A DNA stretch of 62,932 bases, from assembly GCA_041303965.1 (NCBI GenBank), contig JBFYOD010000165.1, positions 1 to 62,932 of the forward strand, in the 5' to 3' direction. The stretch's first letter is position 1, and every line of letters begins with the position of its first letter. Position numbers and translations under genes: made by a program. The stretch is from Candidatus Aminicenantes bacterium (GTDB lineage: Bacteria; Acidobacteriota; Aminicenantia; Aminicenantales; Saccharicenantaceae). Shown in pieces: positions 131 to 59,827 of the stretch. The notes under the pieces are model-generated. The model saw only the letters and a program-made list of their open reading frames with translations, searched no databases and was not told where the DNA came from.

Positions 131-931
131 ATGATGCGCCATCGGTTCGCACCTATCCTCGTGGCCCTTGGTGTCGTCCTTTTTCCGGCCTGCCGCGGCG
201 GACGGTCGCAGACCGACATGACCCTGGCCGGTTCGACGAGCATCCAGCCGTTCGCCGACAAGTGGGCCGAGGTCTTCATGGAAAAGCGTCCCGGACTGGG
301 GGTCAACGTCCAGGGCGGCGGCTCGAGCGCCGGCATCCAGGCCTGCAAGAGCGGCGCTTGCCAGATCGGGATGTCCTCGCGGGAGCTCAAGGGCGACGAG
401 AAGGACCTCTTCGAGATCGTCGTGGCCCGGGACGGACTGGCCATCATCGTCCACCCCTCCAACCCGGTCCTGGGGGTTAAGCTCGCCGAGGTCAAGCAGA
501 TCTTTTCGGGCGATCTGCGCAACTGGAAACTCCTCGGAGGTAAGGACCGCGAGATGACCGTCGTCACCCGGGAGGAAGGGTCCGGGACGCGGGGGGCCTT
601 CCAGGAGCTGGTCATGGGCAAGACCCGGATCTATCGGGGTGCCATTACAGAGGACTCCAACGGCACGGTCCGGGAGATCGTCGCCCACGATCCCTATTCC
701 ATCGGCTTCATATCGCTCGGCCTGGTCAACGAACAGGTCCGGGCCCTCGAGCTCGATGGGGTCGTGGGGAACGAGGCGCATATCCGGGACGGGAGCTATA
801 AGCTCGTCCGGCCTTTTTTATTCCTCAGCCGGGGCGAACCGACGGGCCTGGCGAAGGAGTTCGTCGACTTCGTCCTTTCGGACGAAGGCCAGATGCTGAT
901 CAAGAAGGAGGGCCTCCTCCCGGTCAAGTGA
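131..931 (+). CDS. pstS: Phosphate ABC transporter substrate-binding lipoprotein
   Basis: AGSTSIQP, QGGGSSAG, REEGSGTRG motifs; lipoprotein-type signal; first gene of pst operon. Confidence 0.95.
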   Translation: MMRHRFAPILVALGVVLFPACRGGRSQTDMTLAGSTSIQPFADKWAEVFMEKRPGLGVNVQGGGSSAGIQACKSGACQIGMSSRELKGDEKDLFEIVVARDGLAIIVHPSNPVLGVKLAEVKQIFSGDLRNWKLLGGKDREMTVVTREEGSGTRGAFQELVMGKTRIYRGAITEDSNGTVREIVAHDPYSIGFISLGLVNEQVRALELDGVVGNEAHIRDGSYKLVRPFLFLSRGEPTGLAKEFVDFVLSDEGQMLIKKEGLLPVK

Positions 932-947
932 CCGGGGGCAGCGCGCG

Positions 948-1841
948 ATGGACACGTCATCGAAAGGGCGGGGCAAGAACAGGCTTGAACGCAACGATCG
1001 CCTTGTCCGCCTGGCCCTCCTTGTCGTCGCTCTGTCGGCCATCACGATCCTCCTTGTCATCACGATATTCATAATCGGGCAGGGGACTCCGATCATGTTC
1101 AAGTACGGCCTGAAGAGCTTCCTGGCGGGGGGAGAATGGTATCCTTCGGAAAAGCTCTTTGGGCTCTGGCCGATGATCGTCGGCTCCCTCTACGTCACCC
1201 TGGGTGCCATGGTCCTGGGCGTCCCCTTCGGCCTGGCCTGCGCCATCGTCCTGACGGAGTTCTCCTCCAAACGCGTCCGGCGCGTCATCAAGCCGGTGAT
1301 CGAGCTCTTGGCCGGGATCCCTTCGGTCGTCTACGGTTTCATGGGCGTCATCATCCTCGTCCCCTTCATCCGCGAGACGCTCGGAGGCCCGGGTCTCTCG
1401 GTCCTGGCCGCTTCGATCATCCTGGGCATCATGATTCTGCCGACGATCATCAGCATCTCCGTGGATTCCCTCCAGGCTATCCCTCCGAGCTACCGGGAAG
1501 GGTCTGTCGCCCTTGGGGCCACGAAGTGGCAGACCGTCAAGATGGTGCTTCTGCCGGCAGCCCGTTCGGGCATCATCGCCAGCATCATCCTGGGCATGGG
1601 CCGGGCCATCGGGGAGACCATGGCCGTCATCATGATCGCCGGGAACGCGGCCAGCGTTCCGCACTCGATCCTCGATCCGGTCCGGACCCTGACCTCGAAC
1701 ATCGCCCTGGAAATGGGCTACGCGGCCGGTGAACATCGCCAGGCCCTCTTCGCCACGGGCGTCATCCTCTTCATCATCATCATGATCCTGAACACGGTCG
1801 CCAACGTGACGGCTTCCCGGATGAAGGGCACGAAGAGATGA
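948..1841 (+). CDS. pstC: Phosphate ABC transporter permease PstC
   Basis: ELLAGIPSVVYG, LGMGRAIGETMAV motifs. Confidence 0.95.
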   Translation: MDTSSKGRGKNRLERNDRLVRLALLVVALSAITILLVITIFIIGQGTPIMFKYGLKSFLAGGEWYPSEKLFGLWPMIVGSLYVTLGAMVLGVPFGLACAIVLTEFSSKRVRRVIKPVIELLAGIPSVVYGFMGVIILVPFIRETLGGPGLSVLAASIILGIMILPTIISISVDSLQAIPPSYREGSVALGATKWQTVKMVLLPAARSGIIASIILGMGRAIGETMAVIMIAGNAASVPHSILDPVRTLTSNIALEMGYAAGEHRQALFATGVILFIIIMILNTVANVTASRMKGTKR

Positions 1842-2674
1842 GGATCGACCCCCGGACCGAGCAGAAGATCGTCCGGATCGTCCTCTGGACCTTGACCGGC
1901 ATCACGGTCGCCATCCTCTTCTTCATCATCGCCTTCATCCTTAGGAAAGGCGTTCCCGCCCTGGGATGGGACTTCCTGACCAAGAACCCCGTGGACATGG
2001 GCAAGGGCGGCGGCATTTTCTCGACCGTCGTCGGGACCATCGTCCTGACCGTGGGCGCTCTGGTCATCGCGATCCCCCTCGGAGTCGGGACGGCCATCTA
2101 CCTCACCGAATACACTTGGGAAGGCCCGGTGACCCGGGTTATCCGGTTCGGGGCCGAATGCCTAGCCGGCATCCCCTCGATCATTTTCGGCCTCTTCGGC
2201 TTCATCCTCTTCGTCACCAAGCTCAAGTTTGGCTGGTCGATCCTGAGCGGCAGCCTGACCCTGGCCTTCATGATCCTTCCGACCATCATCCGGACATCGG
2301 AGGAGGCCATCAAGAGCGTGCCTCCGGTCTACCGGACCGTCAGCTTCTCCCTGGGCAGCACGAAATGGCAGACCGTCATCCGCGTGGTCCTCCCTTCGGC
2401 CCTGCCCGGGATCGTGACGGGGGTCATCCTGAGCGTCGGCCGCAGCATCGGCGAAACCGCGGCCGTCATCTTCACGGCGGGCAGCGCCCTGCGCCTTCCG
2501 ACGTCCCTCTTTGCCTCCTCCCGGACGATGTCCGTCCATTTCTACATCCTGGCCCGGGAAGGGATCTCGATGTCCAACGCTTACGGCACCGCCGCCATAC
2601 TGATCATCGCCATCCTGGGGATCAACGTTCTGACCTATTACCTGATGAATAGATTCATCAAGAAGTACTCATGA
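1838..2674 (+). CDS. pstA: Phosphate ABC transporter permease PstA
   Basis: LAGIPSIIFGLFG, GRSIGETAA motifs; ATGA overlap with pstC. Confidence 0.95.
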   Translation: MRIDPRTEQKIVRIVLWTLTGITVAILFFIIAFILRKGVPALGWDFLTKNPVDMGKGGGIFSTVVGTIVLTVGALVIAIPLGVGTAIYLTEYTWEGPVTRVIRFGAECLAGIPSIIFGLFGFILFVTKLKFGWSILSGSLTLAFMILPTIIRTSEEAIKSVPPVYRTVSFSLGSTKWQTVIRVVLPSALPGIVTGVILSVGRSIGETAAVIFTAGSALRLPTSLFASSRTMSVHFYILAREGISMSNAYGTAAILIIAILGINVLTYYLMNRFIKKYS

Positions 2675-2693
2675 GCGGGGAGCAGCGGATAAC

Positions 2694-3452
2694 ATGAGCG
2701 ACGTGGCCATCCGGGTCCGCGGGTTCAGCCAGTTCTTCGGCGGCGTAGGCAAGATCAACGCCCTCGACCTGGACGTCCACCGGAACGAGATCCTGGGCAT
2801 CATCGGGCCGGCCCGGAGCGGCAAGTCGACCTTCCTCTGCGCCCTCAACCGCCTCAACGATCTCGTTCGCGGCTCGCGTCATGAGGGGACGATCATGATC
2901 GACGGCCGGGACATCAATGCCCCCGACGTGGACGTCGTCGAGCTGCGCCGGAAGCTGGGTATGGTCTTCGCCACGCCGGTGCCGCTGCCGCGCTCGATCT
3001 TCGAGAACGTCGCTTTCGGCGCGAGGATGGCCGGCATCCACGACCGGGCCCGGCTCGACGTCCTCGTCCGGGACAGCCTGGAGAAGGGCGGGCTATGGGA
3101 GGAGGTCAAGGACCGGCTGAGAACGAGCGGCCTGAAGCTCTCGGGCGGCCAGCAGCAGCGCCTCTGCCTGGCCCGGATCCTGGCCGTCCTTCCTGAGTTC
3201 ATCCTGCTCGATGAGCCGACCTCGGGGCTCGACCCCATCTCGACGATGAAGATCGAGGACTCTCTGCGGAAGCTCAAGAAGGACTACACGATCATCCTGG
3301 TCACCAACAACACCAAGCAGGCGGCGCGGGTCGCCGACCGTACGGCCTTCTTTCTGAGCGGCGGGCTGGTCGAGGTCGGCCCGACGGCGCAGATCTTCAC
3401 CGCGCCGACGGATCAGCGCACGGACGATTACCTCCGGGGAAGGTTCGGCTAA
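2694..3452 (+). CDS. pstB: Phosphate ABC transporter ATP-binding protein (copy 1, H-loop His replaced by Asn)
   Basis: GPARSGKST, LSGGQQQRL, LLDEPTS, VTNNTKQA, C-terminal YLRGRFG. Confidence 0.92.
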   Translation: MSDVAIRVRGFSQFFGGVGKINALDLDVHRNEILGIIGPARSGKSTFLCALNRLNDLVRGSRHEGTIMIDGRDINAPDVDVVELRRKLGMVFATPVPLPRSIFENVAFGARMAGIHDRARLDVLVRDSLEKGGLWEEVKDRLRTSGLKLSGGQQQRLCLARILAVLPEFILLDEPTSGLDPISTMKIEDSLRKLKKDYTIILVTNNTKQAARVADRTAFFLSGGLVEVGPTAQIFTAPTDQRTDDYLRGRFG

Positions 3453-3458
3453 ACCGCC

Positions 3459-4211
3459 ATGAACATCATCGAAGTCCGCGGCTTGTCCTTCCACTACGGG
3501 AAGTTCCAGGCCTTGAAGGACATCAGCCTGGACATCGGGAAAAACCGTATCACCGCCCTCATCGGCCCCTCGGGCTGCGGCAAGACCACCTTCCTCCGCT
3601 CGCTCAACCGCATGACCGACCTCATCGACGACGTCCGGGTCACGGGAACCGTCCTCATCGACGGGGAGGACATCTACCAGCCCGGCACCGATCTGCTCCG
3701 CCTCCGCAAGAAGGTGGGCATGGTCTTCCAGAGGCCTAATCCGTTCCCGCTGAGCGTCTTCGACAACGTTGTCTATGGCCTCCGGGTTCACGGCATCCGC
3801 GACTCCAAGGTCCTCGAGGAGACGCTCGTCCGCAGCCTCGAATCCGTCCATCTCTGGGACGAGCTCAAGGATCGGCTGGACGTGAACGCGCTCACCCTCT
3901 CGGGCGAACAGCAGCAGCGGCTGTGCATTGCCCGCCTGGTCGCCGTCGAGCCGGAGATCCTCCTCATGGATGAACCGTGTTCGGCCCTCGACCTGGCGGC
4001 CACGGCCAACATCGAGAACCTCATGGCCGAGCTCAAAAAGCGTTACACGATCCTCATCGTTACCCACAACATGCAGCAGGCGGCCCGGGTCTCGGACGTT
4101 ACCGGCTACTTCCTCCTCGGCGAACTTGTCGAGATCGGCGAGACCCAGCAGATATTCACCAACCCGCAAGATTCCAGGACAGAAGACTACATCACGGGGA
4201 GGTTCGGTTAG
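3459..4211 (+). CDS. pstB: Phosphate ABC transporter ATP-binding protein (copy 2, signature LSGEQ)
   Basis: [41 protein letters not shown]. Confidence 0.93.
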
Positions 4212-12829: not shown

Positions 12830-13273
12830 ATGAAAAAGATCGGCATTATCATCTGCGGCCGCTATCAATCCTGCGGCGGCGGGAAATGCCTCAGGTCCGT
12901 CCGGGAACGCGTCGGGGGTTTCGCCCGCTATTCCAAGGACGAGCCCGTCGAGGTCGTCGGATTCTCCTATTGCGGCGGCTGTCCCGGCGGCAACGTCGAG
13001 TACGTCCCCGAAGAGATGAAAAAGAACGGCGCGGAGGTCATCCACCTGGCCACCGGGCTGGTCGTGGGCTACCCGCCCTGTCCGTACATCCGGCAATTCA
13101 AACAGTTCATCGAGACGCGCTATGGACTGCCCGTGGTCGTCGGCACCCATCCCATCCCCCTCAAGTATCTGGAGGCCCACCGCCGGCTGCCCTTCTGGGA
13201 TGACATGAATATGGCGGAGATCGCCGGCGACCTGATGAAAGAAGACCGGGCGGTCATGGAGGACTACAACTGA
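12830..13273 (+). CDS. CGGC domain protein
   Basis: IIICGRYQSCGGGKC, CGGCPG, IHLATG, CPY, VVGTH. Confidence 0.88.
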   Translation: MKKIGIIICGRYQSCGGGKCLRSVRERVGGFARYSKDEPVEVVGFSYCGGCPGGNVEYVPEEMKKNGAEVIHLATGLVVGYPPCPYIRQFKQFIETRYGLPVVVGTHPIPLKYLEAHRRLPFWDDMNMAEIAGDLMKEDRAVMEDYN

Positions 13274-13361
13274 GCCGTCGCCGGGATCGACCACCGCATC
13301 GGTGGCCTTGGGAATAACCCGGCCTGGAACATCGAGTCTTTGATGGAAAGGCACACGTCGT

Positions 13362-13847
13362 ATGAGCGCTGACGACCGAAAAGACAAACTGGAACAGGCG
13401 GTCCAAAAACTGCAGGAAGAGATCGAGCGGGACGTCCTTGCGACTTACGGGGCCACGGTGTTTGAGCACTGGAAGCATCCCCGGAATCTCGGGCTCTTGG
13501 AGAATCCCGACGGGTACGCCAGGGTCAAGGGGACCTGCGGAGACACGATGGAGATGTCCGTGCGGGTGGACAAGGACGTCGTCGTCGCCTGCGGGTTTCA
13601 GACGGACGGCTGCGGCACGACGACGGTCTGCGGCAGCGCTGCCACCTGGCTGGCCACGAACCGGACCTTCATCGAAGCGCTGGGCGCTGTGACCTGCCGC
13701 GGCATCCTGGAGGTGCTGGGGGGGCTGCCCGAGGCGGACGTCCACTGCGCCGAGCTCGCCGCCGAAACGCTCCGGCGGGCCCTGGCCGATCACCTGGCCC
13801 ACAAGAACGAGCCGTGGAAGAACCTTTACCGTAAGCCAAGTCCGTGA
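13362..13847 (+). CDS. IscU/NifU-like Fe-S scaffold protein
   Basis: GTCGDTM, DGCGTTTVC, HCAELAAETL. Confidence 0.85.
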   Translation: MSADDRKDKLEQAVQKLQEEIERDVLATYGATVFEHWKHPRNLGLLENPDGYARVKGTCGDTMEMSVRVDKDVVVACGFQTDGCGTTTVCGSAATWLATNRTFIEALGAVTCRGILEVLGGLPEADVHCAELAAETLRRALADHLAHKNEPWKNLYRKPSP

Positions 13848-13934
13848 AGCGGACGGGGATCGGAGGGCGCGACGGCGGTTGAAATGGACGTCCGATTGCC
13901 GTAGAATCCCGCCTTCAAGAAAAGGAGAACGCCG

Positions 13935-14480
13935 ATGACTCGTGAAGAAGCGTTGGACCTGCTCAAGCAACACCTGAAGAATAAGAACCTGGTCAAGCAC
14001 TGCCTGTCGGTCGAGGCCTGCATGCGGGCCCTGGCCGTACGGTTGGGGCACGACCCCGAACCCTGGGCACTGGCCGGCATCCTCCACGACCTCGACTACG
14101 AGGTCACGGACAAGAGCCCCGAGCTGCACACGACCGAGACGGTCAAGGTCTTGCGGGAGAAGGGCATCGCCGAGCCGGTCATCCACGCCGTCCAGGCCCA
14201 CGCCGGCAAGGTCCCGTGCGAATCGCCCATGGACTGGGCCATCTTTTCCGTCGATCCCCTGACCGGCCTGATCATCTCCGCGACGCTGATGCACCCGGCG
14301 AAGAAGCTCAAAGCCATCGACCTCGAGTTCCTGAAAAGGCGCTACAAGGAGAAGAGTTTCGCCCGGGGCGCCCGCCGCGAGGAGATCGAGCAGTGTCAGA
14401 ACCTCGGCCTCGAGCTGGACGAGTTCCTGACGGTCGCCATCACGGCGATGCAGGGGATCGACCAAGAGCTCGGGCTCTAG
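13935..14480 (+). CDS. HD-domain metal-dependent phosphohydrolase
   Basis: KHCLSVE, GILHDLDYE, HAVQAH, VDPLTGLI. Confidence 0.85.
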   Translation: MTREEALDLLKQHLKNKNLVKHCLSVEACMRALAVRLGHDPEPWALAGILHDLDYEVTDKSPELHTTETVKVLREKGIAEPVIHAVQAHAGKVPCESPMDWAIFSVDPLTGLIISATLMHPAKKLKAIDLEFLKRRYKEKSFARGARREEIEQCQNLGLELDEFLTVAITAMQGIDQELGL

Positions 14481-14483
14481 TCC

Positions 14484-16442
14484 CTACTTCAGCACGTCCA
14501 GTCGCAGTCCCACCTCGAAGTACCGCCCCCGCCAGGGGAAGCCGGGCTCGGTGTAGAAGTAGTGGTTGAGGACGTTGCCGAGCTTAATGAAGACCTGGTA
14601 GCGCTCCCTGAATTCGTAGCTGACGATGCCATCGAGGTTGAAATACGCGGGGATCTCCAACAGCGTGGCGGGGTTGGTCCGCGTGTTCCACCACCAGGAC
14701 TTCGAGCCCAGCAGCCCGTAGAGGCCGGCCCGGACGCCCTTGGCCGGCAGGACCGAGACGTCGAAATTGAGGTTGTTCTTGGGCTGGGCGTCGAGGGGCC
14801 TGTCGTCCGTGTCGTTCCGCGGATCGAGGAAGGTGTAGTTGACGGTCGCTTCCAGCCAGCTTAGCTTCTTCTGGGCCTGGACCTCGAAGCCGTAGATGTG
14901 GGCCTCGCCGACGTTGACGTACAGTCGCGTTCCACCCTCCAAGGTGATGGTGTCGATGAAGTTCCTGAACCGGTTGAAGAAGACGGTCCCCGTCAGGTAG
15001 ACCGGCCCGTTCCAGGTCGCGGCGAGCTCGAAGCTCGTTCCCGACTCGGCCAGGAGGTCCGGATTCCCCGAGCTCGTTGAATAGAGGGAGCGCATCGAGG
15101 GGAAGCGCGACTTGCGGGCGAAGGAAACGTGGAAGTCGAGGTCGTCGTTGGGCGTGAACTTGACGCCGATCAGGGGATTGAGGGAGGTGTTGTTCTCGCC
15201 TCCCTCGTACTTGTCGATAGAGTCGAGACTCAGGCCGCCGATGACCTTCCACTGGTCGGTCAGGCGGAATTCGTCCTCGATGCCGGCCGAGAGCGTCCCC
15301 TGGTCGTAGCGATCCCAGGGCAGCCCCGCATCGTCCTGGATGCGGGCGATATCCTTCTGGTAGAGCAGGCTGGCCTTGAGCGTGTTCTGCTCGCCGGCGG
15401 GCACTTCGGCCAGCGCGAAGCCGCCGTAGGACGAGTTGTCGTAGGTGCTCGACGAATCGAGCTCGGTCATCGCCGGGTCGGCGAACCAGTCGAGCGTGTT
15501 GAAGTAATTGACATAGAAGCCGCGGAAGCGCAGAACGGCGTCGCCGCCGAGCGAAGTGAAGCCGCCGGCGCTCAGGCTCGAGCGGTCCCACTTCGGGAAT
15601 CGCCAATACCGGGCGCGCTGGGTGAAGAGGGCGGGGGGCATGCCGTACTCGGACTGGTACGTCCCGCCGCTCACCATGATCTCGGTCTTGTCCGAGGGCG
15701 TGAAGTAGAGCTTGCCGCTGAGGTTGAGGCGCTCGAAGTCGCCGTTGGCCCGCAGGGTCTTGCCGGCCTCGGGATCGGGATAGGTGAAGCCGTCCGAGGC
15801 CTGGTACAAGGCGCTGGCCGCGAGCGAGAAGCTCTTCCAGGCGTACGACGCGTCGGCGCCCAGGCCCGCAGTGGCTTTGTCGCCATAGCTGCCGGTGAGC
15901 GAGAGGTAGGGCTGGGAGGAGGGCCGTCGGGTGATGACGTTGACCAGGCCGCCGAGCGTATTGGGACCGTAGAGGACCGAGGACGGGCCCTTGGTCACCT
16001 GCAGAGTATCGATGCCGCCGGCCGAGACCGTCTTCAGGTCGAAGGTGGAAAAGTAGGGCTCGTAGACGGGCACGCCGTCGACGAGCAGAGCGATCCGGTT
16101 GGCGCCGATGCCGCGGAGCTTCAGGTTGTAGGTGTCCTTGTCGCCGAAGGTGACCATGGAGCCGGGAATGTACTTGACCACATCGGAGAGGTCGCGGGGC
16201 TTGAGCTTGCCGATGTCCGTGGCCACGATCGTCGAGACGGTGGCTAGGGGAACGTCCTTGGGGGCCTTGCCGACGACCAGGATCTCCTCGGTGATCCTGA
16301 CCGCCTTTTCTTCACCTTTTTTCTTGGCTTTCTGCTCGTCCTTCGCGACCTGAGCGAGGGCCGGCGATAGACCTAGAGAAAGAGCAAAAATAATGAAGCC
16401 GACGATGATGAGTTTGGGAATGGAGCGCAGAGGTAAAATCAT
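14484..16442 (-). CDS. TonB-dependent outer membrane receptor
   Basis: Signal peptide; TonB-box-like EEILVVG; plug LRGIG...LLVDGVP, VTKGPSSVLYGPNTLGGLVN; C-terminal GRYFEVGLRLDVL. Confidence 0.93.
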   Translation of the reverse strand: MILPLRSIPKLIIVGFIIFALSLGLSPALAQVAKDEQKAKKKGEEKAVRITEEILVVGKAPKDVPLATVSTIVATDIGKLKPRDLSDVVKYIPGSMVTFGDKDTYNLKLRGIGANRIALLVDGVPVYEPYFSTFDLKTVSAGGIDTLQVTKGPSSVLYGPNTLGGLVNVITRRPSSQPYLSLTGSYGDKATAGLGADASYAWKSFSLAASALYQASDGFTYPDPEAGKTLRANGDFERLNLSGKLYFTPSDKTEIMVSGGTYQSEYGMPPALFTQRARYWRFPKWDRSSLSAGGFTSLGGDAVLRFRGFYVNYFNTLDWFADPAMTELDSSSTYDNSSYGGFALAEVPAGEQNTLKASLLYQKDIARIQDDAGLPWDRYDQGTLSAGIEDEFRLTDQWKVIGGLSLDSIDKYEGGENNTSLNPLIGVKFTPNDDLDFHVSFARKSRFPSMRSLYSTSSGNPDLLAESGTSFELAATWNGPVYLTGTVFFNRFRNFIDTITLEGGTRLYVNVGEAHIYGFEVQAQKKLSWLEATVNYTFLDPRNDTDDRPLDAQPKNNLNFDVSVLPAKGVRAGLYGLLGSKSWWWNTRTNPATLLEIPAYFNLDGIVSYEFRERYQVFIKLGNVLNHYFYTEPGFPWRGRYFEVGLRLDVLK

Positions 16443-16446
16443 GAGG

Positions 16447-16545
16447 TTCTCCTTTTCGAAAATGGAAGGAAAAACCGTTTCCCGTTTTTCCCTATCGGTC
16501 GGAGGGCGTGGCCGGATAAGGCGTTAGCTCCTCCGACTCGGAGAA
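16447..16545 (-). promoter_or_regulatory. Moco/Tuco-class riboswitch candidate
   Basis: Minus strand reads UUCUCCGAGUCGGAGG-AGCUAAC...CCACG-CCCUCCGAC-CGAUAGGG-AAAAACGGGAAACGGUUUUU-CCUUCC-AUUUUC-GAAAAGGAGAA. P1 (UUCUCC/GGAGAA) contains the RBS. Confidence 0.7.
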
Positions 16546-16598
16546 AGGGCGAAGGCTATCATGGACCGTTAGGATTGTAAAGACCCGATGATCTCCCT

Positions 16599-18014
16599 TT
16601 AGTTCCCCTTGGCCGGTTCCTGCAGCTTGCTGTGGCGGACGCCGTACATGAAATAGATCGCCAAGCCGGCCAGCAGCCAGATGCCGAACCTGATCCAGGT
16701 CACTTTCGGCAGACTGGCCATCAGGTAGAAACAGAAGGCGACCGTGATGAGTGGAGTGAACGGGACGCCGGGCGTCTTGAACTTCCGCTCGACTTCCGGC
16801 CGCGTTTTCCTCAGGACGACCACACCGACGGAAACGAGGATGAAGGCGAACAGCGTGCCGATGTTGCAAAGGTCGATGATCATGGGCAGGGGGAAGAGCC
16901 CGGCGATGAGCGCCGTGGCGATCCCGGTGATCCAGGTGCAGATATGAGGCGTCTGATGCTTGGGATGGACCTTGGCGAAAGCCGCGGGCAGGAGGCCGTC
17001 GCGGGCCATGACCATGAAGATGCGGATCTGGCCGTAGAGCGTGACCAGCAGGGTCGAGATCATGCCGATGATGGCCCCCGTCGCGACCAGGGCCCCGCCC
17101 CACTGGATGCCGATACGGCCCAAGGCCGCCGGCAGGGCGTTGCCGACGTCGATCAGCTTGTAAGGGACGATGCCCGTCAGGACGAAAGCGACGGAAACGT
17201 AGAGGACGATAACGACGCCCAGGCAGAGCATGAGCCCCAGCGGGACGTCCCTCTTGGGGTTCTTCGTCTCTTCAGCCGCCGTGGACACGGCGTCGAAGCC
17301 GATATAGGCGAAGAAGATGATGGCCGCGCCGGCCATGACGCCCTTCCAGCCGAATGGCATCATGGGCTGGAGGTTGGCCAGGTTGACGTGGCGGACGCCT
17401 AGGAAGACGAACAGGAGGATGACGGCGATCTTGACGAGGACGATGATGTTGTTGATCTTGGCGCTCTCGCGGATGCCGATGTAGAGGACCCAGGTGATGA
17501 GCAGGGTGATGACGATGGCCGGGACATCGACGATGCCGCCGGACAGGACGATGCGGCCGTCGATCGTCGTGATCGGCGGAGTCAGGAGAGCTCTCGGCAG
17601 CTTGACCCCGGCGCTCTGGATGAGGCCGATGAAGGTCGTCGACCAGCCCGAGGCCACGGCGCTCGCGGCGACGAGGTATTCGAGCATGAGGTCCCAGCCG
17701 ATGATCCAGGCGATGACCTCGCCGAAGGCGACGTAGGAATATGAGTAGGTGCTGCCGGCGACCGGGAACATGCAGGCCAGCTCCGAGTAGGTCAGGGCGC
17801 AGAAGCCGCAGGTGACGGCGGCGATGATGAACGAGATGAGGATACCGGGGCCGGCCAGCTGGGCCCCCTGGCCGGTGGCTACGAAGATGCCCGTCCCGAC
17901 GACGGAGCCGATGCCCAGGGCGGCCAGGTCGACGGCGGTCAGGTTTTTCTTGAGTTGAGTGTGTGAGGCGGCCTCTTCGATCTGGGCCGGAGTTTTCGTA
18001 ATCCAGATGTTCAT
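16599..18014 (-). CDS. APC-family amino acid permease
   Basis: GIGSVVGTGIF, GSTYSY, AYIGFDAVSTAAEETKNP; ATG at 18014 with RBS. Confidence 0.93.
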   Translation of the reverse strand: MNIWITKTPAQIEEAASHTQLKKNLTAVDLAALGIGSVVGTGIFVATGQGAQLAGPGILISFIIAAVTCGFCALTYSELACMFPVAGSTYSYSYVAFGEVIAWIIGWDLMLEYLVAASAVASGWSTTFIGLIQSAGVKLPRALLTPPITTIDGRIVLSGGIVDVPAIVITLLITWVLYIGIRESAKINNIIVLVKIAVILLFVFLGVRHVNLANLQPMMPFGWKGVMAGAAIIFFAYIGFDAVSTAAEETKNPKRDVPLGLMLCLGVVIVLYVSVAFVLTGIVPYKLIDVGNALPAALGRIGIQWGGALVATGAIIGMISTLLVTLYGQIRIFMVMARDGLLPAAFAKVHPKHQTPHICTWITGIATALIAGLFPLPMIIDLCNIGTLFAFILVSVGVVVLRKTRPEVERKFKTPGVPFTPLITVAFCFYLMASLPKVTWIRFGIWLLAGLAIYFMYGVRHSKLQEPAKGN

Positions 18015-18138
18015 GGCGGGCCTCTCCTTTTTTGGCGGTAAAGAGAGGGAGTATATCCAAGTCCGGGCGGAAAGCAATCCCCCGCGGCGGCCCGGCCCGC
18101 TTTGACTTGCCGATGGGTGGTGTGCTAATTAAAACAAG

Positions 18139-18807
18139 ATGAAGATCGTCGCCGTCGTCGGCTTTTCGGAGAGCGGGAAGACGCGGCTCATCGTCCGGCT
18201 CATCGGGGAATTGAAGAGAAGAGGGCTGCGGGCGTATGCGCTCAAGCGCTGTTCGCACGCTTTCTCCCTGGACACCGAAGGCAAGGACACCTCGGACTTC
18301 ACCGAAGCGGGCGCCGACGGGGTGGCCATGGTCTCGCCGGACGGCTGGGCGGCGCTGAGCAAGGCGCCTGTCGCGGATGTCCCGGCGCTGGCCGGCCGGC
18401 TTTTCCCCGGCGCGGACGTCGTCCTCGTCGAGGGAGGCAAGGAGGCTGCCGGGTTGCCCAAAATAGAAGTCCTGCGGGCCGGCGTGTCCGAGGTCCTGGT
18501 CAGCCGACCCGACGAGCTTCTCGCCGTCGTTTCGGATTTCCCCCTGCCCGACGGGCTCCCGGTCCCCACCTTCAAACCCGAAGAGACGACGAAGATCTGC
18601 GACCTGATCCTTAGCCTGGAGGAGGACAACATGGCCGACATCAAGCTCGAAGTGGACGGCCGGGAGGTCAACCTGAACCCGTTCGTCCGGACGTTCATCG
18701 AAAAGACGGTCCTGGCGATGGTCACGTCGCTCAGCGGCATCGACCCCGAGCCGAAGACGATCTCCCTAGTCATCGACAGGAAAGAGGCGGCCGCGAAGCC
18801 GCGCTGA
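18139..18807 (+). CDS. mobB: Molybdopterin-guanine dinucleotide biosynthesis protein MobB with C-terminal extension
   Basis: VVGFSESGKTRL, DTEGKDT, DVVLVEGGK, PKIEV. Confidence 0.85.
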   Translation: MKIVAVVGFSESGKTRLIVRLIGELKRRGLRAYALKRCSHAFSLDTEGKDTSDFTEAGADGVAMVSPDGWAALSKAPVADVPALAGRLFPGADVVLVEGGKEAAGLPKIEVLRAGVSEVLVSRPDELLAVVSDFPLPDGLPVPTFKPEETTKICDLILSLEEDNMADIKLEVDGREVNLNPFVRTFIEKTVLAMVTSLSGIDPEPKTISLVIDRKEAAAKPR

Positions 18808-18812
18808 ATTCG

Positions 18813-19469
18813 ATGAAAGCCCCGCTGAAGCCCGACTCGCTCGCCTTCGCCAGGGAATTTTTCTCACGCAGGGATCCGGACGTCCTGGCCGTTCTGCGGC
18901 GGAGCTCGGTCGGCATCGCCGGCGCCGGCGGACTGGGGTCCAACGTGGCCGTCTCCCTGGCCCGGGCTGGCGTCGGGCGCCTGGTCATCGCCGACTTCGA
19001 CAAGATCGAACCGTCCAACCTCAACCGTCAGCAGTACACCATAGACCAGGCGGGGGAGAGGAAGGTCGAGGCGCTACGCGACAACCTGCTGGCCATCAAC
19101 CCCTATTCGCTCTACGAGGTCCACGACGTCCGCGTCACGCGCAGGAACGCGGCCAGGATCTTCGCCAGGGTCGACGTCCTCGTCGAGGCCTTCGACCGCG
19201 CCGAGGCCAAAGAAATGCTCATCGAGACCTGTCTGACGAAGTTCCCCGGCCGGCCCATCGTGGCCGCCTCGGGACTGGCCGGCTACGGCGGGAACCGGAA
19301 GATCCACACTCGCAGGATGGGGAATCTCTATATCTGCGGCGATGAGGAGAGCCAGTGCCCCAAGGGCGTCAGCCCGATGGCCCCCCGGGTCGCCCTGGTC
19401 GCGGCCATGCAGGCCAACCTCGTCGTGGAATTATTAATTAAAATGAGAGGTCGTCATGTTCAAAGTTAA
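18813..19469 (+). CDS. thiF: ThiF/MoeB-family sulfur-carrier adenylyltransferase
   Basis: [33 protein letters not shown]. Confidence 0.82.
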
Positions 19470-19835: not shown

Positions 19836-21422
19836 TCAGAGCGATCTTTGCGTCCATTCGCCGTCGACGAAGCGCCACATGGTTCCGGTCGGGTTTACGC
19901 CCCTTAGCTCGGAAGGCAGGCGATCGGGGCGGACGTTATCGTAGCACCTTAGGGCCGCGAACCTGAACATAGCCGCCGGGAATCCGACTGCGGTGAATCC
20001 CGGATGCCCGGTGGCCGGGTAGGGTCCGCCGTGGTTCATGGCCGGCGAAACGGCGACCCCGGTGGGCATCTTGTCGTTTAACAAGCGGCCGACCTTGGTG
20101 CGCAGGATGGGTTCGATCTCGTCGTACTCCCGATCGTCTCTCCCTTCGCTATGGCTGTAAACTGACCCGGTGAGGTGTCCCTCCAAACGCGAAGCGATCT
20201 CCTTCATCTCGGCCATGTCTTTGGCCAGGACGATCAACGACAAGGTGCCGAAGGATTCGACCTGGAAGGCCGCGGGCTGCCGCAGGAATCCTGTCCCCGA
20301 AAGGCTGAATAGGGTGGGCGAAAACCTGAATCCCTGTCCCGCTGGTTCACGCCCTCCGGCGATGGGTTCGGCTCCGTCCCGAGCCAAGCGGGCCGAGGCT
20401 TCCCGGAGCCCCTCGAGGACTTTCGGGCCGAGGAGGATCACCGGCTCCGCTGCATGAAAGGCGTCTTTGACTTTATCGACGAAGGTCCGGCCGGCGGGAT
20501 CGTCGAGGATGACCACCAAACCGGGTTTAGTGCACATCTGTCCGCCCGCCAACATGCAAGATAGGAAAAGCTCTCCGGCGACCTCCTCCGCCCGCTCGGA
20601 GAGGGCTCCCGGAAGAATGAAGACGGGGTTGGCGCTCGACATTTCCAGGTAGATGGGCTTTCCCGCCCGGTCTGCGGCTTCCTTGAGGGTCATCCCCGAG
20701 GGACGGCTGCCGGTGAAAGCCGTAGCTGCGACGGAAGGGTGTGAGACAAGCCGCAGGCCGTCTTCCGGGGCGAAATGGTAGAGAAGCTGGACGGTCGCGG
20801 CCGGGAGCCCCGCCGTTCCGAGGGCCTCCTGGGCCGCCTCGGCCATGATCCTTGTGGTTGACGGGTGCCCGGGGTGGGACTTGGCCAGGACCGGGTTCCC
20901 CGCGGCTAGGGCTGACGCGAAATCCCCTCCACCTATGGCGTTGTAGGCGAAGGGAAAATTGTTCGGCCCCATGATGACGACCGGACCGCCCAAGGGTCCA
21001 AGCATGGAGCGGATATTCAGTTTCGTATCGATCGTGGCCCGGCACCAAGAGCGGTCACGGCAAGCCGCCGCCGCTTGGCGCAACTGGTCGAGGAGCCGCG
21101 GCAATTCGACGGACGCGAGGCGGGGCTCGGACGGGAGGGCGGTTTCAAGATGGGCGGCGGCGACGAGTTCTTCCTTCCGTCCCTCCACAAGCTCGGAAAA
21201 TATCTCGAGGAAACGCGCGACGGGTTGGGGGCCGACGGCGGCCATTTCCAGCGCAGCCCGTGCGCCTGCCGCCAAGGCCTCGGCGATATCGGTCCATGGG
21301 GAGATCGGATATTCTCCCGGGAGGAACTCGCCTGTCGCCGGATTGACGGCCCGGAAAGTCTCCGCAGCTCCGGCGGGCCGCCAATACCCGTCGACGAGTA
21401 TTGGGAACGCTCTCGATCGCAT
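19836..21422 (-). CDS. NAD(P)+-dependent aldehyde dehydrogenase (alpha-ketoglutaric semialdehyde dehydrogenase-like)
   Basis: GPNNFPFAYN, KSHPGHP, FTGS, EMSSANP, GQMCTKPG, E-FG, HGGPYPAT. Confidence 0.88.
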   Translation of the reverse strand: MRSRAFPILVDGYWRPAGAAETFRAVNPATGEFLPGEYPISPWTDIAEALAAGARAALEMAAVGPQPVARFLEIFSELVEGRKEELVAAAHLETALPSEPRLASVELPRLLDQLRQAAAACRDRSWCRATIDTKLNIRSMLGPLGGPVVIMGPNNFPFAYNAIGGGDFASALAAGNPVLAKSHPGHPSTTRIMAEAAQEALGTAGLPAATVQLLYHFAPEDGLRLVSHPSVAATAFTGSRPSGMTLKEAADRAGKPIYLEMSSANPVFILPGALSERAEEVAGELFLSCMLAGGQMCTKPGLVVILDDPAGRTFVDKVKDAFHAAEPVILLGPKVLEGLREASARLARDGAEPIAGGREPAGQGFRFSPTLFSLSGTGFLRQPAAFQVESFGTLSLIVLAKDMAEMKEIASRLEGHLTGSVYSHSEGRDDREYDEIEPILRTKVGRLLNDKMPTGVAVSPAMNHGGPYPATGHPGFTAVGFPAAMFRFAALRCYDNVRPDRLPSELRGVNPTGTMWRFVDGEWTQRSL

Positions 21423-21482
21423 CAAAGGTCCTCCGTCAAAGGCCTGCGGCGGCGCGTCCCCGTCGAGGTTCCGGCCAGAGGT

Positions 21483-21733: not shown

Positions 21734-23572
21734 TCAGGTCATCGAGCCGAATTTCTCCGCCGCCTTGGCCTCTTCCGCGAGTCCCAGCCGCTCCAGGGTG
21801 GCCTTGGTCGGGATGCCGCGCTTGTCGTAGCCGCGGATATCGTAGTAATGCTGGAGCAGGCCATCGTACTTGTCGTATTCGAGGACCATGCCGGCGATCG
21901 GCCCCTCGGTGTCGGCGTTGGCCGGGTCGAACCAGACGGCGGGCGGGTAGTCGAGCTTGCGGTCGGTCTGGGGGTATTCCCGGAGCCAGAAGAGCTTTAT
22001 CACGGAGTAGATCCGATCCGAGACCGTCCAGAAGTCGTCGAGGGTCCAGTCGAGCCCGGTGACGAGCTTGAAATATTTCGGGTAATTCTCGAGGCCCCAG
22101 CCGACTTCGATCCAGGGGAAGCGGCAGGAGACCATGTACTCGAACAGGCCGCCCCTGATCCTCTGGAGCTCGATGACTTTCTTGGCCTTTTCGGGTCCGT
22201 AGGATTCGCGCGAGGTCTGTTTGAGCTCGAAGGTGATGACCCAGGACTCCTTGTGGTGGGCGCCGATGGGGCTGACCCCGAAGGCCAGGGCCATCCCAGG
22301 GATGAACTTGCAGTTGTAAGCGGCGACCTCGAGACCCTTGACCTGCATGGCGTAGGCCTCGGAGCCGTGGCCGAACTTCCGGGCGGCCCGGAGCGAGCCC
22401 TCGGCCAGAAGGTTGCCGATCTCGCCTTCGCGCCGGGCGATCAGGCCCAGGAGCTTCTTGGCCCCGTCGGCGTCGCCGAACTTGAAATCTCCGGCCACGG
22501 CCCCGTGGTCGATGGCGTCGGCGTAGAAGCTCAGGACGCATCCGGCCGACATCGTGTCGATGCCGTATTCGTCGCAGAGATAATTGAGCGAGCCGATCTG
22601 GGGAAAGTCGAAGATCTCCAAGTTGGGGCCGAGGAGGCCGATGTTCTCGTAATCGAGCTCAGACTCGCGCCCCTCGTCGTCGTGGATGGTGATGCCGCAG
22701 CGCATGGTGCAGTTCGGACAGCCGTAGGTCGCGATCCGGGCGTTGTTCAGGCGCTCGCCGTCGACCTTCCAGGCGTCGGGGTGGTGGGTTTTGCGGAAGT
22801 TTCGCACGGGTAGGGCGGCCACTTCGTTGCACCAGGCGAGGACGCCGTTGGTGCTCTGGATGGACCAGCCGGTCTTTTTGTCGATCTCATGGACTTCCCG
22901 CAGGTCGTCGTGTCCGATCTTTTTCATGCCGGCGGGGTCAGCCTGGGGTATGGGCTTCGTGCCCTTGACGACGACGGCTTTGAGGAGCTTCGAGCCCATG
23001 ACGGCGCCCATGCCCGTCCTGCCCCCGGCCCGGCCCTCGAGGCTGCGGACGACGGCGTAGCGGACCATGTTCTCGCCGCCCTGTCCGATGTTGAGGACGC
23101 CCACGCCCTTGCCGTATTTCGCGTAGATCCAGTCGTTGGTGGCGTAGGTGCCCTGGCCCCAGACGGCGTCGGCCGGGAGAAACTCGACCTTATCGTCCTC
23201 GATATAGAGCATTGTCGGGCGCTCGGCCTTGCCCTCGACGATGAGGGCGTCGTAACCGGCCTTCCGGAGCTCCACGGCTACCCGCGTCCCCAGGTTGCCG
23301 TCGCCGTAGCCGCCGGTCATCGGGGACTTGCCGGCGACGACCGCTTTCCCGGTGTTGGGGGCGGGGATGCCGGCGATGGGGCCGAGGGCGACGATGAACT
23401 TGTTGTCGGGGCCGAGGGGGTCGATCCCCGGCTTGAGCTCGTCGTAAAGGATCTTGGCGGCAAATCCGCGTCCGCCGATCCATTTCCGGGCGAATTCCTC
23501 GGAGAACGGTTCTTTCTTAAAGGTCTTCGCGGTCAGGTTGACTCTCAGGATCTGGCCGGTCCAGCCGTTCAT
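21734..23572 (-). CDS. aor: Aldehyde:ferredoxin oxidoreductase (tungsten-containing family)
   Basis: WIGGRG, KSPMTGG, GRAGGRTGMGAVMGSK, CPNCTMRC, EYENIG, LCDEYGIDT. Confidence 0.94.
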   Translation of the reverse strand: MNGWTGQILRVNLTAKTFKKEPFSEEFARKWIGGRGFAAKILYDELKPGIDPLGPDNKFIVALGPIAGIPAPNTGKAVVAGKSPMTGGYGDGNLGTRVAVELRKAGYDALIVEGKAERPTMLYIEDDKVEFLPADAVWGQGTYATNDWIYAKYGKGVGVLNIGQGGENMVRYAVVRSLEGRAGGRTGMGAVMGSKLLKAVVVKGTKPIPQADPAGMKKIGHDDLREVHEIDKKTGWSIQSTNGVLAWCNEVAALPVRNFRKTHHPDAWKVDGERLNNARIATYGCPNCTMRCGITIHDDEGRESELDYENIGLLGPNLEIFDFPQIGSLNYLCDEYGIDTMSAGCVLSFYADAIDHGAVAGDFKFGDADGAKKLLGLIARREGEIGNLLAEGSLRAARKFGHGSEAYAMQVKGLEVAAYNCKFIPGMALAFGVSPIGAHHKESWVITFELKQTSRESYGPEKAKKVIELQRIRGGLFEYMVSCRFPWIEVGWGLENYPKYFKLVTGLDWTLDDFWTVSDRIYSVIKLFWLREYPQTDRKLDYPPAVWFDPANADTEGPIAGMVLEYDKYDGLLQHYYDIRGYDKRGIPTKATLERLGLAEEAKAAEKFGSMT

Positions 23573-57213: not shown

Positions 57214-57302
57214 GCCGGTGTGGCGGAACTGGCAGACGCGCGGGACTCAAAATCCCGTGCCCTTTGCGGGGCGTGTGGGTTCGATTCCCTCCACCGGCAC
57301 CA
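57214..57302 (+). tRNA. tRNA-Leu(CAA)
   Basis: GCCGGTG/CACCGGC acceptor; CGGGA-CTCAAAA-TCCCG; long variable arm; CCA end. Confidence 0.96.
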
Positions 57303-58296: not shown

Positions 58297-58351
58297 TTAA
58301 AAATCCCGTGTCTAGCAATAGGCATGTGGGTTCGATTCCCTCCACCGGCAC
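58297..58351 (+). repeat. Displaced tRNA-Leu 3' half (att junction 2)
   Basis: Runs from the anticodon loop through the acceptor; 26-bp block identical to the tRNA; its own variable arm TGTCTA-GCAA-TAGGCA. Confidence 0.9.
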
Positions 58352-58577
58352 GCCTTATTTCCCTGGGATGTCAGCGATTTACGATGAGCCCTGACCCTCT
58401 CATCGCCTTCCGTCCGAAACCGTAATTTCACTGCGCTTTCAGCCTATTTTGTCACGCCACCGTCACACGGCGAGAGGCCTGCCTTCTTGCCCGGCGAATC
58501 GTCCTACCACTTGAATTAATATTGTATTTCAACAGTGCCTTAGGTTAAACTACGGACAGTTTAATAGGAGGGGAAGA

Positions 58578-59117: not shown

Positions 59118-59148
59118 AATTCGGCACGAGCTATGAAGGAGGGGGAAA

Positions 59149-59691: not shown

Positions 59692-59770
59692 AATTCGCCT
59701 GTAGGAATCACGAGCGAGGGACGTTTTGCGACGTTCCCAACCGAATTGTTGCCGAAGGGAGACCCTGGCC

Positions 59771-59827
59771 CTCATAATCCCGTTCGGGGCAACTCGAGCG
59801 TGGGTTCGATTCCCTCCACCGGCACCA
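59771..59827 (+). repeat. Displaced tRNA-Leu 3' half (distal att, probable native half)
   Basis: CTCATAA-TCCCG; variable arm TTCGGG-GCAA-CTCGAG; identical T arm and acceptor; ends CCA; host-like GC sequence resumes after it. Confidence 0.9.

Follow-up and report, generated by a model that had tools for sequence, protein, structure and literature searches.

A P3-less Moco/Tuco-type riboswitch ahead of a TonB-dependent receptor gene in Aminicenantes points to an outer-membrane uptake route for tungsten/molybdenum or a pterin cofactor

The window, that is the whole stretch of DNA analysed, comprises 62,932 nucleotides of a Candidatus Aminicenantes bacterium (contig JBFYOD010000165.1). Our interest lies in a gene for a TonB-dependent outer-membrane receptor, which is preceded by a structured leader RNA. 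The genes at this locus are as follows.

13935–14480, + strand: HD-domain gene, convergent with the receptor gene and ending 3 nt from its stop codon
14484–16442, − strand: TonB-dependent outer-membrane receptor of 652 aa, with Pfam Plug and barrel domains
16599–18077, − strand: amino-acid permease of the APC family, encoded immediately upstream in the same orientation; it lies outside the regulated unit, the promoter sitting between this gene and the aptamer
18139–18807, + strand: MobB, molybdopterin-guanine dinucleotide synthesis protein B (PF03205, 101.7 bits; TIGR00176, 91.7 bits against a cut-off of 76.2)
18813–19469, + strand: adenylyltransferase of the ThiF/MoeB family (NCBIfam name ThiF), syntenic with MobB
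21734–23572, − strand: protein of the aldehyde:ferredoxin oxidoreductase (AOR) family, a tungstoenzyme family (AFOR_N, 249 bits; AFOR_C, 334 bits)

The proximity of the convergent HD-domain gene to the receptor stop codon makes the receptor gene monocistronic. A 403-aa open reading frame downstream of the receptor (13254–14465, − strand) was treated as spurious; it has no family match, and both the NifU gene and the HD gene on the opposite strand overlap it.

That the gene encodes a TonB-dependent receptor, as an earlier note on this DNA had proposed for the riboswitch-regulated gene, is borne out by matches to Plug (PF07715, 70.5 bits) and barrel (PF00593, 116.2 bits). The protein consists of a putative signal peptide (about residues 1–30), a Lys-rich linker, the plug (residues 67–165) and a 22-strand barrel. 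By eye, the N-terminus is hydrophobic and ends in ALA-Q, and a TonB-box-like segment, ITEEILVVG, is located near residue 50, where Glu52 and Glu53 are nearly invariant. The AlphaFold model (pLDDT 83.4, pTM 0.84) gave BtuB (TM-score 0.78/0.86) and OprC (TM-score 0.78/0.77) as its top Foldseek matches. Sequence and fold searches against the PDB identify these two proteins, a cofactor importer and a metal importer, as the closest solved relatives, with about 19% identity. The fold, as modelled, says nothing about the substrate. The receptor shares its compact 22-strand architecture and similar size with OprC (copper), ZnuD (zinc) and CntO (metal–pseudopaline), but those are under the control of protein regulators.

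The source annotations name the protein an iron-complex receptor, and it falls far below every NCBIfam equivalog cut-off. A BtuB orthologue is excluded (TIGR01779, 121.4 bits against a cut-off of 599.7; NF007926, 94.5 against 836), and the siderophore and heme receptor subfamilies were likewise rejected (TIGR01783, 120 bits against 223.5; TIGR01785, 111.7 against 316.85).

The leader and the elements that precede it, all on the − strand, are arranged as follows in the direction of transcription.

16576–16581, − strand: promoter −35 hexamer TTTACA (TTGACA in most orthologues), from the aligned upstream regions of 31 loci
16553–16561, − strand: extended −10 element TGaTAGCCT, 17 nt past the −35 hexamer, its position and sequence conserved in orthologues (consensus TGCTAATCT)
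16433–16555, − strand: RF01055 aptamer in the P3-less form, from the covariance-model score and covariation in 31 sequences
16540–16545, − strand: 5′ strand of P1, UUCUCC, from the Rfam alignment; its core, CUCC, does not vary among the 31 leaders
16498–16537, − strand: P2 stem with an invariant CUAA bulge (the tetraloop-receptor side), coordinates mapped from the leader alignment
16467–16492, − strand: P4 stem capped by an invariant GAAA tetraloop, with 5 of 11 pairs covarying
16447–16452, − strand: 3′ strand of P1, GGAGAA, from the Rfam and leader alignments; GGAG is invariant
16452–16449, − strand: Shine–Dalgarno sequence GGAG, within the 3′ strand of P1
16442–16440, − strand: start codon ATG, preceded by GGAGAA and the 6-nt spacer AACCUC

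A cmscan search with Rfam 15 matched the leader to RF01055, the Moco/Tuco aptamer, at 16555–16433 (− strand) over the full model (1–135) with 70.0 bits (E 7.6e-15). The gathering score of the family is 36 bits, and the membership proposed in the earlier note is upheld. Every feature of the Moco motif listed in the earlier note, namely CUCCGAG, GCUAA, CCACG, AUAGGG, GGAAAC, CCUUCC and GAAAAGGAG, is present. The stem P3 is indeed missing between P2 and P4: model columns of approximately 62–77 are deleted, and all 31 aligned leaders have 3–4 nt at this point. Orthologous and analogous leaders score 54–86 bits. A looser scan of 11–25 kb returned the same single match, and no further or weaker copies were found near the AOR and MobB genes. 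The AOR gene is therefore without a riboswitch of its own, and the receptor is the only riboswitch-regulated gene in the window.

The structure was assessed in an alignment of 31 orthologous leaders, in which 84.7% of cells are paired and 13 pairs are altered on both sides. None of 500 shuffles matches the observed pairing score and slid registers are all worse. The main P2 helix is 93.9% paired, with five of ten pairs covarying; the main P4 helix is 90% paired, and its covarying pairs include changes from A-U to C-G, U-A or G-C. The conserved core, made up of CUCCGAG, CCUYCC and AAAGGAG together with the bulge CUAA and the P4 tetraloop GAAA, is invariant or nearly so in the 31 leaders. The P1 core and P5 do not vary and so are uninformative on covariation. 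P1 comprises four invariant pairs and two variable ones; covariation is not demonstrable for a stem so short and with a sequence conserved across the whole RF01055 family. A thermodynamic fold reproduces P2 and P4, with P1 only marginally stable without ligand. The ribosome-binding site had been placed inside P1, 6 nt from the ATG, and the alignment agrees: GGAG belongs to the 3′ strand of P1, and a start codon (ATG, GTG or TTG) follows 5–7 nt past it in nearly all 31 leaders.

The leader itself is an ordinary member of the RF01055 family; it is the target gene that is new. Comparison of loci of about 14 kb each, from 34 Aminicenantes species genomes with DNA upstream of the orthologous receptor, placed the leader there in 30, the conservation in homologues that the earlier note had called for. 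The four remaining loci lack the leader and show no other visible change, so that control is dispensable. This loss might suggest that the RNA is a relic, or has another role such as a transcript-stabilizing 5′ structure, with no cofactor-responsive control of the receptor. We regard this as very improbable: the full-length aptamer is kept, with compensatory changes, even where orthologues share as little as 54% protein identity, P1 contains the ribosome-binding site without exception, and the same pairing of RNA and receptor occurs in unrelated receptor clades and phyla.

A strict scan of 14300–16800 for σ70 promoters and terminators gave no promoter and no relevant terminator. The promoter call is made instead from conservation across loci. 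The proposed TTTACA-N17-TAGCCT aligns with an element, TTGACA-N17-TGnTAAnCT, that is conserved just 5′ of P1 in nearly all orthologous loci, though it fails the strict consensus. The −35 hexamer lies 18 nt past the stop codon of the permease gene, and the −10 hexamer TAGCCT (16558–16553) has TG ahead of it. No terminator was found between the aptamer and the ATG.

Since the 3′ strand of P1 carries the Shine–Dalgarno GGAG, 6 nt from the ATG, we infer control at the level of translation. Plentiful tungsten (or molybdenum) pyranopterin cofactor would bind the aptamer and stabilize P1, hiding GGAG, blocking ribosome binding and stopping synthesis of the transporter. With cofactor scarce, P1 would open and the transporter would be made. 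The overall logic would be that of an OFF switch, with feedback repression of an outer-membrane importer. In E. coli, moaA is repressed through the same arrangement, a ribosome-binding site within P1 (Regulski et al., 2008; PMC2408646). The moaA leader likewise belongs to RF01055 and shares the P1, P2, P4 and P5 architecture, the GAAA tetraloop and the CUCCGAG/AAAGGAG core, and the position of the ribosome-binding site in the 3′ strand of P1 predicts a translational OFF switch in both. The Aminicenantes leader differs in the absence of P3 and in having a TonB-dependent outer-membrane receptor as its target. We consider it highly likely that the locus carries a genuine P3-less (Tuco-type) riboswitch with its own σ70-type promoter, exerting OFF control over a single gene for a TonB-dependent outer-membrane transporter.

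RNAs lacking P3 have been proposed to sense the tungsten cofactor, as inferred from gene associations (Regulski et al., 2008; PMC2408646). The earlier note had stated this association correctly, the Tuco specificity being a correlation-based proposal of that publication. Two marks of the 'Tuco' subtype are found here, in that P3 is absent and the host has a tungsten-cofactor gene, that of the AOR-family protein (21734–23572). MobB, the ThiF-family gene and the AOR gene all lie within 7 kb of the aptamer and are syntenic across loci. The gene context, with an AOR-family gene and MobB so close, fits tungsten. AOR genes are also present in related loci, and linkage of the receptor to MobB and AOR persists even in orthologues of about 55% identity. 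Most loci, among them the distant L028, L030, L032 and L048, retain the linkage of MobB to the receptor; in L028 and L030 the receptor gene is divergent from an ALDH–MobB–x–ferredoxin–AOR operon, and in L032 it is directly divergent from MobB.

An ABC operon at 131–4211 was first suspected to encode a tungstate transporter because of its PBP_like_2 binding protein. The candidate was rejected; the NCBIfam assignments are PstS–PstC–PstA–PstB–PstB, a phosphate transporter. There is no Tup, Mod or Wtp ABC transporter within the window.

AOR enzymes contain 4Fe–4S clusters, and the transporter might import iron, as a siderophore or other chelate, with the riboswitch coupling iron supply to the production of iron–sulfur-rich tungstoenzymes. 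Such a function would accord with the source annotation as an iron-complex receptor, and the Tuco-riboswitch-controlled fetABC operons of Eubacterium limosum have been read as iron importers (PMC11725836). Nevertheless, iron import appears improbable to us, given that the annotations are generic family labels and the siderophore-receptor models all score far under their cut-offs. A ribosome-binding site in P1 predicts repression when cofactor is abundant, opposite to the needs of active tungstoenzymes. The conserved neighbourhood contains genes for the cofactor and none for iron, and the window encodes FeoB for ferrous iron, the usual iron route in anoxic habitats.

A cofactor-controlled OFF switch on the transporter would place it in the tungsten-cofactor regulon, and it most probably carries a precursor of the cofactor across the outer membrane. 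With rather modest confidence we favour a tungsten or molybdenum species, whether as the free oxyanion, as a chelate or in thio form, over a pterin as the substrate; the earlier note had named both kinds of candidate, tungstate/molybdate complexes and a pterin cofactor. The targets of P3-less riboswitches elsewhere bear on this choice. We surveyed 120 metagenomic loci with P3-less aptamers and counted the directly downstream genes among 110. TupA-like tungstate-binding proteins are the commonest (33), followed by TonB receptors (13), MoaA (8), MoeA (7) and others. The prevalence of tungstate-binding proteins, that is of metal importers, supports a metal substrate and counts against import of a pterin. 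In E. limosum, P3-less riboswitches control tupABC, siderophore-type ABC importers and a tungstoenzyme, and tungsten limitation raises the transcripts of fetABC1, one of these importer operons, and of focA, and leaves those of tupABC unchanged (PMC11725836). There, as here, P3-less RF01055 RNAs are found on uptake systems, and some of the E. limosum examples also sequester the ribosome-binding site. The regulon differs from ours in that E. limosum, being monoderm, has no outer-membrane component, while in our window the AOR gene lacks a riboswitch, the receptor being the sole regulated gene.

The receptors preceded by this RNA are not all of one type. A second receptor clade, 22–26% identical, also carries RF01055, in five further phylum-level lineages: Zixibacteria, KSB1, Acidobacteriota, Zhuqueibacterota and Krumholzibacteria. 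In one of its loci (L162) the receptor lies beside MobA, MobB and FdhD. The 264-aa lipoprotein partner of this clade has no significant Pfam match and no PDB sequence match. A third, unrelated receptor (L063) likewise carries RF01055.

These other receptors also supply evidence for a different substrate. The transporter might import an organic pterin (the tungsten/molybdenum cofactor in intact form, molybdopterin, or a precursor, for instance cPMP) under the same OFF logic and in the service of cofactor salvage. In sister clades one operon encodes both the receptor and a YkoE-like ECF S-component of family PF09819 (L145 and L160; weakly L063), and ECF transporters typically carry vitamins. Elsewhere (L070, with which L103 clusters) a P3-less riboswitch precedes a PF09819 protein with C-terminal matches to PF00174, a molybdopterin-binding domain, followed by a double ABC ATPase; the fusion of the YkoE-like component to a molybdopterin-binding fold leans towards a pterin substrate. 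BtuB is the best full-length match of the receptor in both sequence and fold, but a weak one, at 19% identity and 121 bits where the cut-off is 599.7. The cofactor-maturation genes retained beside the receptor (MobB and the ThiF-family enzyme; MobA, MobB and FdhD in L162) suggest that these genomes make their own cofactor, which argues against import. Moco, Tuco and molybdopterin are, moreover, very labile, and we know of no bacterial uptake of any of them.

Analogy with known systems favours a pterin. In the other riboswitch-controlled TonB receptors known to us, AdoCbl/btuB of E. coli and the TPP/thiamine receptors of Bacteroides (BT2390) and Caldithrix abyssi, a cofactor-sensing riboswitch represses a TonB-dependent importer for that cofactor or for a precursor of it (PMC5317091 for C. 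abyssi). The present system employs another riboswitch class, and its substrate need not be the cofactor itself. On this evidence we regard pterin import as possible, though on the whole unlikely. The specific version in which Tuco, Moco or molybdopterin is scavenged from the environment as an intact pterin, be it cofactor or precursor, assisted in sister clades by a surface lipoprotein and the YkoE-like ECF S-component, seems to us slightly more doubtful still. Uptake of a tungsten or molybdenum species remains our preferred reading.

In the literature on TonB together with riboswitches, molybdenum or tungsten, we found no paper describing a Moco/Tuco riboswitch paired with a TonB receptor, and no TonB-dependent transporter for tungsten or molybdenum in the literature searched. 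The main text of Regulski et al. (2008; PMC2408646) mentions neither TonB nor outer-membrane proteins, and the term 'outer membrane' is absent from the RegPrecise-based survey of Sun (2013). The Pelobacter carbinolicus genome paper, which places TonB channels near 'molybdopterin riboswitches', was considered as a precedent and rejected; its supplement shows only btuB with a B12 riboswitch, neighbouring aorA-2 with a Moco riboswitch.

The pairing of aptamer and receptor suggests a hitherto undescribed route by which tungsten/molybdenum or a pterin cofactor is taken up across the outer membrane. To our knowledge, the established importers of tungstate and molybdate are inner-membrane ABC systems only (Mod, Tup and Wtp), and the passage of these oxyanions through the outer membrane of diderm bacteria, at picomolar to nanomolar concentrations, is as good as uncharacterised. 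The riboswitch serves as a built-in functional label, placing in the tungsten/molybdenum-cofactor regulon a conserved TonB receptor family that is now annotated as iron or B12 receptors and is present in Aminicenantes as well as in at least five further lineages of uncultured anaerobes. The finding widens the range of targets known for the Moco/Tuco riboswitch and would correct thousands of database annotations. Tungsten-dependent aldehyde oxidoreductases are important in anaerobic digesters, in sediments and in gut microbiomes, which gives trace-metal uptake there practical weight. The receptor is a concrete candidate, amenable to cloning, for the outer-membrane step that is missing; a role in cofactor salvage is less probable. 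Should pterin import prove true, it would be the first known case of bacteria salvaging the molybdenum/tungsten cofactor, and would imply that members of anoxic communities exchange these supposedly unstable compounds much as they do B12.

An Rfam 15 scan of the whole window gave a single riboswitch match, to RF01055, the molybdenum/tungsten cofactor aptamer, at 16555..16433 on the minus strand (70.0 bits, E 7.6e-15, model positions 1-135; gathering score 36 bits), and no second copy appeared when 11-25 kb was rescanned more permissively. The earlier note had assigned the leader to this family from sequence, and the score bears the assignment out. Every motif named there is present, and the columns of helix P3, held to be absent, are deleted in the Rfam alignment. 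The window RNA is an ordinary RF01055 member of the P3-less form, proposed as a tungsten-cofactor sensor by Regulski et al. (PMC2408646). The downstream gene does encode a TonB-dependent receptor, with plug and barrel domains.

Features of the window
131-4211: phosphate ABC operon, PstS-PstC-PstA and two tandem PstB ATPase genes
14484-16442, minus strand: TonB-dependent receptor ORF, 652 aa (plug 70.5 bits, barrel 116.2 bits)
16452-16447, minus strand: P1 3' strand GGAGAA, then AACCUC, then ATG at 16442-16440
16581-16553, minus strand: promoter TTTACA-N17-(TG)aTAGCCT, from comparative alignment
Between permease and receptor, minus strand: intergenic region, 156 nt
16599-18077, minus strand: APC-family amino-acid permease, upstream of the receptor
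18139-18807: MobB (TIGR00176 91.7 bits, above the 76.2 cut-off)
18813-19469: ThiF/MoeB-family adenylyltransferase
19836-21425: aldehyde dehydrogenase
21734-23572: aldehyde:ferredoxin oxidoreductase (AOR), a classical tungstoenzyme family (AFOR_N 249 bits, AFOR_C 334 bits)

The receptor is transcribed alone, because a convergent HD-domain gene terminates 3 nt from its stop codon. Its scores against named receptor families all fall far short of the cut-offs (for BtuB, 121 bits against 599.7). The AlphaFold model (34 sequences; pLDDT 83.4, pTM 0.84) is a 22-strand barrel around a plug, for which the best Foldseek matches in the PDB are E. coli BtuB (TM-score 0.78/0.86) and the copper transporter OprC (0.78/0.77), each about 19% identical. 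A sequence search of the PDB places BtuB first (E 1e-14). The modelled fold is certain; it does not tell the substrate. A 403-aa ORF at 13254-14465 on the minus strand, antisense to NifU-like and HD-domain genes and with no family match, was rejected and is probably a high-GC artefact rather than a gene.

The nearest proteins, 73-93% identical and in >120 clusters, belong to metagenome-assembled genomes of Candidatus Aminicenantes. Among GTDB species representatives, a scan retrieved 37 loci (L-numbers), of which 36 encode a receptor with an identity of 46% or more; upstream DNA is available for 34 of the 36. Conservation among these homologues speaks for the earlier claim: a homologous leader lies immediately 5' of the receptor in 30 of the 34 (nhmmer; exact core pattern), and in the most divergent leader loci (L024, L026, L028, L030 and L032; 54-66% protein identity) cmscan gives RF01055 at 58-72 bits. 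The leader is missing at four (L017, L019, L023 and L034). In two of these, L017 and L019, from Aminicenantes MAGs of the Rifle aquifer, permease and receptor are still syntenic, but the leader has been cleanly removed, promoter and riboswitch alike, with ~20-35 nt left between the genes (L017:5970-6001, L019:3927-3960; orthologous to window 16443-16598). In several 'MFD' MAGs (L025, L031, L033) matches to the receptor, the permease or MobB are broken over 2-3 frames, which most likely reflects assembly frameshifts and not pseudogenes.

Projection of the Rfam structure onto 31 aligned orthologous leaders (alignment A1) gives standard pairs in 84.7% of cells and both-side changes at 13 pairs (48 cells), values matched by none of 500 shuffles; registers slid by 1-3 columns are all much worse (34-56% paired, 5-10 covarying pairs). 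Five covarying pairs lie in P2 and five in P4, where one position alternates A-U, C-G, U-A and G-C. No variation occurs, here or family-wide, in the CUAA bulge, the GAAA tetraloop, AAAGGAG or the CUCC/GGAG core of P1, and for P1 covariation is therefore uninformative. Thermodynamic folding of the window leader recovers P2 and P4, with P1 in the minimum-free-energy structure and missing from the centroid; so marginal a predicted P1 fits a helix that would depend on ligand for stability. Below the GAAA tetraloop of P4, the second pair (window 16475-16484; A1 columns 102/109) is non-standard in 29 of the 31 leaders, and in 27 it is a conserved G-G mismatch; the Rfam consensus there is C-G, and the mismatch is a clade-specific feature.

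The element TTGACA-N17-TGnTAAnCT aligns in the upstream regions of orthologous loci and stops ~10 nt short of the P1 core. The promoter TTTACA-N17-TAGCCT put forward in the earlier note aligns with this conserved element but is missed by a strict consensus scan, so its support is comparative. Pairing is only 38% in the outermost Rfam P1 pairs, which would fall 5' of the predicted transcription start. No terminator was found 3' of the aptamer, and a start codon (ATG, GTG or TTG) falls 5-7 nt past GGAG in nearly all 31 leaders; the window has, as had been claimed, its ribosome-binding site in P1, 6 nt from the ATG. Direct sequestration of that site by a ligand-stabilised P1 is therefore the only plausible expression platform, and we infer the same design as in E. 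coli moaA, where P1 likewise sequesters the ribosome-binding site (PMC2408646). The earlier observation is confirmed and its interpretation supported. By OFF-switch logic the receptor would be made when the cofactor is scarce; production under scarcity would suit an importer of something needed for cofactor synthesis.

MobB, the ThiF/MoeB protein, the aldehyde dehydrogenase and AOR all lie within 7 kb of the receptor, in a block syntenic in most loci, and linkage to MobB/AOR persists in loci without the permease. The riboswitch-receptor unit of L028 and L030 (about 55% identity) stands divergent to an ALDH-MobB-x-ferredoxin-AOR operon; in L032 the direct divergent neighbour is MobB. Linkage to cofactor-maturation genes suggests that the cells make their own pterin. 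Iron as the substrate would be contrary both to the direction of regulation and to this gene context, and we regard it as very improbable. The remaining window genes are housekeeping, including PstSCAB and FeoB; the ABC operon was rejected as Tup or Mod, being PstSCAB. Right after a long-arm tRNA (57214-57299), GC falls from ~0.62 to ~0.48 over 57300-59800 (ORF third-position GC from ~0.85 to ~0.55), a stretch that is probably a small horizontally acquired island.

Metagenome contigs, a convenience sample, were scanned with the class-wide conserved P3-less nucleotides (CTCCGAG, N30-50, AGGG, N7, GGAAAC, N7, CCTYCC). This pattern, which fixes the P4 length, recovers 30 of 30 Aminicenantes leaders and gave at least 120 loci. 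A downstream gene was callable for 110 of the matches listed; the genes were clustered and the clusters labelled with Pfam.

Genes downstream of P3-less aptamers (of 110, among the matches listed)
TupA-like PBP_like_2 binding protein: 33
TonB-dependent receptor: 13
MoaA: 8
MoCF_biosynth protein: 7
MoeA: 7
ModA/WtpA-like binding protein: 6
PF09819 YkoE-like membrane protein: 4
ABC permease: 3
AOR: 1

The 13 receptors among the matches listed span more than the Aminicenantes clade. Those of L044 and L156 are ~40% identical to the window protein and that of L145 25%, while the L063 receptor (771 aa, N-terminal CarboxypepD_reg domain) is unrelated to it; RF01055 scores 54-74 bits in these loci. 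At L063:6459-9430, on a low-GC (39%) contig, RF01055 is followed by the receptor and a weak PF09819-like protein, so that riboswitch and receptor are paired here independently for a third time. P3-less riboswitches also precede PF09819 YkoE-like ECF S-component proteins at L070:805-3827 and L103:3986-7084, both followed by a double ABC ATPase; the C-terminal part of the L070 protein matches the Oxidored_molyb domain PF00174. At L122:2453-4099 the gene after the riboswitch encodes a membrane protein in which PF00174 occurs twice, and a TupA-like gene comes next. These arrangements may represent an ECF-type importer of the tungsten-cofactor regulon.

L145-type receptors, the second clade, share 22-26% identity with the window protein and are found in Zixibacteria, KSB1, Ignavibacteria, Krumholzibacteria, Zhuqueibacterota and Acidobacteriota. 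In all eight database members sampled the receptor is preceded by a lipoprotein of 263-271 aa that matches no Pfam family, and in L160 and in metagenome locus L145 a PF09819 protein follows the receptor. RF01055 lies upstream of the lipoprotein-receptor operon at 73-86 bits in six loci.

Second-clade operons
Zixibacteria, L160:2930-6634: RF01055-lipoprotein-receptor-PF09819
KSB1, L161:965-4080: RF01055-lipoprotein-receptor
Acidobacteriota, L162:2446-5453: RF01055-lipoprotein-receptor, adjoining MobA, MobB and FdhD
Zhuqueibacterota, L164:2291-5444: RF01055-lipoprotein-receptor
Krumholzibacteria, L165:3-2895: RF01055-lipoprotein-receptor
Metagenome locus, L041:867-1924: RF01055 before the lipoprotein-receptor operon

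In Ignavibacteria, neither of the two lineages sampled (three loci) carries RF01055; there the pair is inserted between selA and selB, beside tRNA-Sec (L158:1556-8416, L159, L163:1182-7483); in L158 and L159 a molybdopterin oxidoreductase also adjoins it. This placement ties the pair to an Mo/W enzyme that contains selenocysteine, probably formate dehydrogenase. On the model of BtuG, which acts as capture partner for BtuB, the lipoprotein may serve the receptor in the same way at the surface.

A pterin substrate is suggested by analogy with the B12/BtuB and TPP/thiamine receptors, by the YkoE-like ECF S-components in the same operon as the receptor and by PF09819 proteins with matches to PF00174 (a molybdopterin-binding domain) behind the same riboswitch type; we hold it possible, though rather unlikely. 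We lean towards a tungsten or molybdenum species, since tungstate-binding proteins are the commonest targets of this riboswitch type among the matches listed and the receptor is linked to genes for cofactor maturation and tungstoenzymes. For very scarce metals the usual solution is TonB-dependent uptake, which also favours a metal. So does E. limosum, in which P3-less riboswitches precede siderophore-type ABC importers and transcripts of one of these, fetABC1, are induced by tungsten limitation (PMC11725836).

Outer-membrane targets are not mentioned by Regulski et al. (PMC2408646) or in the 2013 comparative riboswitch-regulon survey, and full-text searches of open-access papers and bioRxiv (Mo/W or riboswitch with TonB) found no description of the riboswitch/TonB pairing. 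The P. carbinolicus genome paper was rejected as a precedent, its one suggestive sentence concerning mere adjacency. Here a known switch is paired with a target class that is new and widely conserved, and the pairing predicts a new transporter function. The receptor offers a specific candidate for how tungsten/molybdenum (or the cofactor) would be taken up across the outer membrane in several phyla of uncultured anaerobes.
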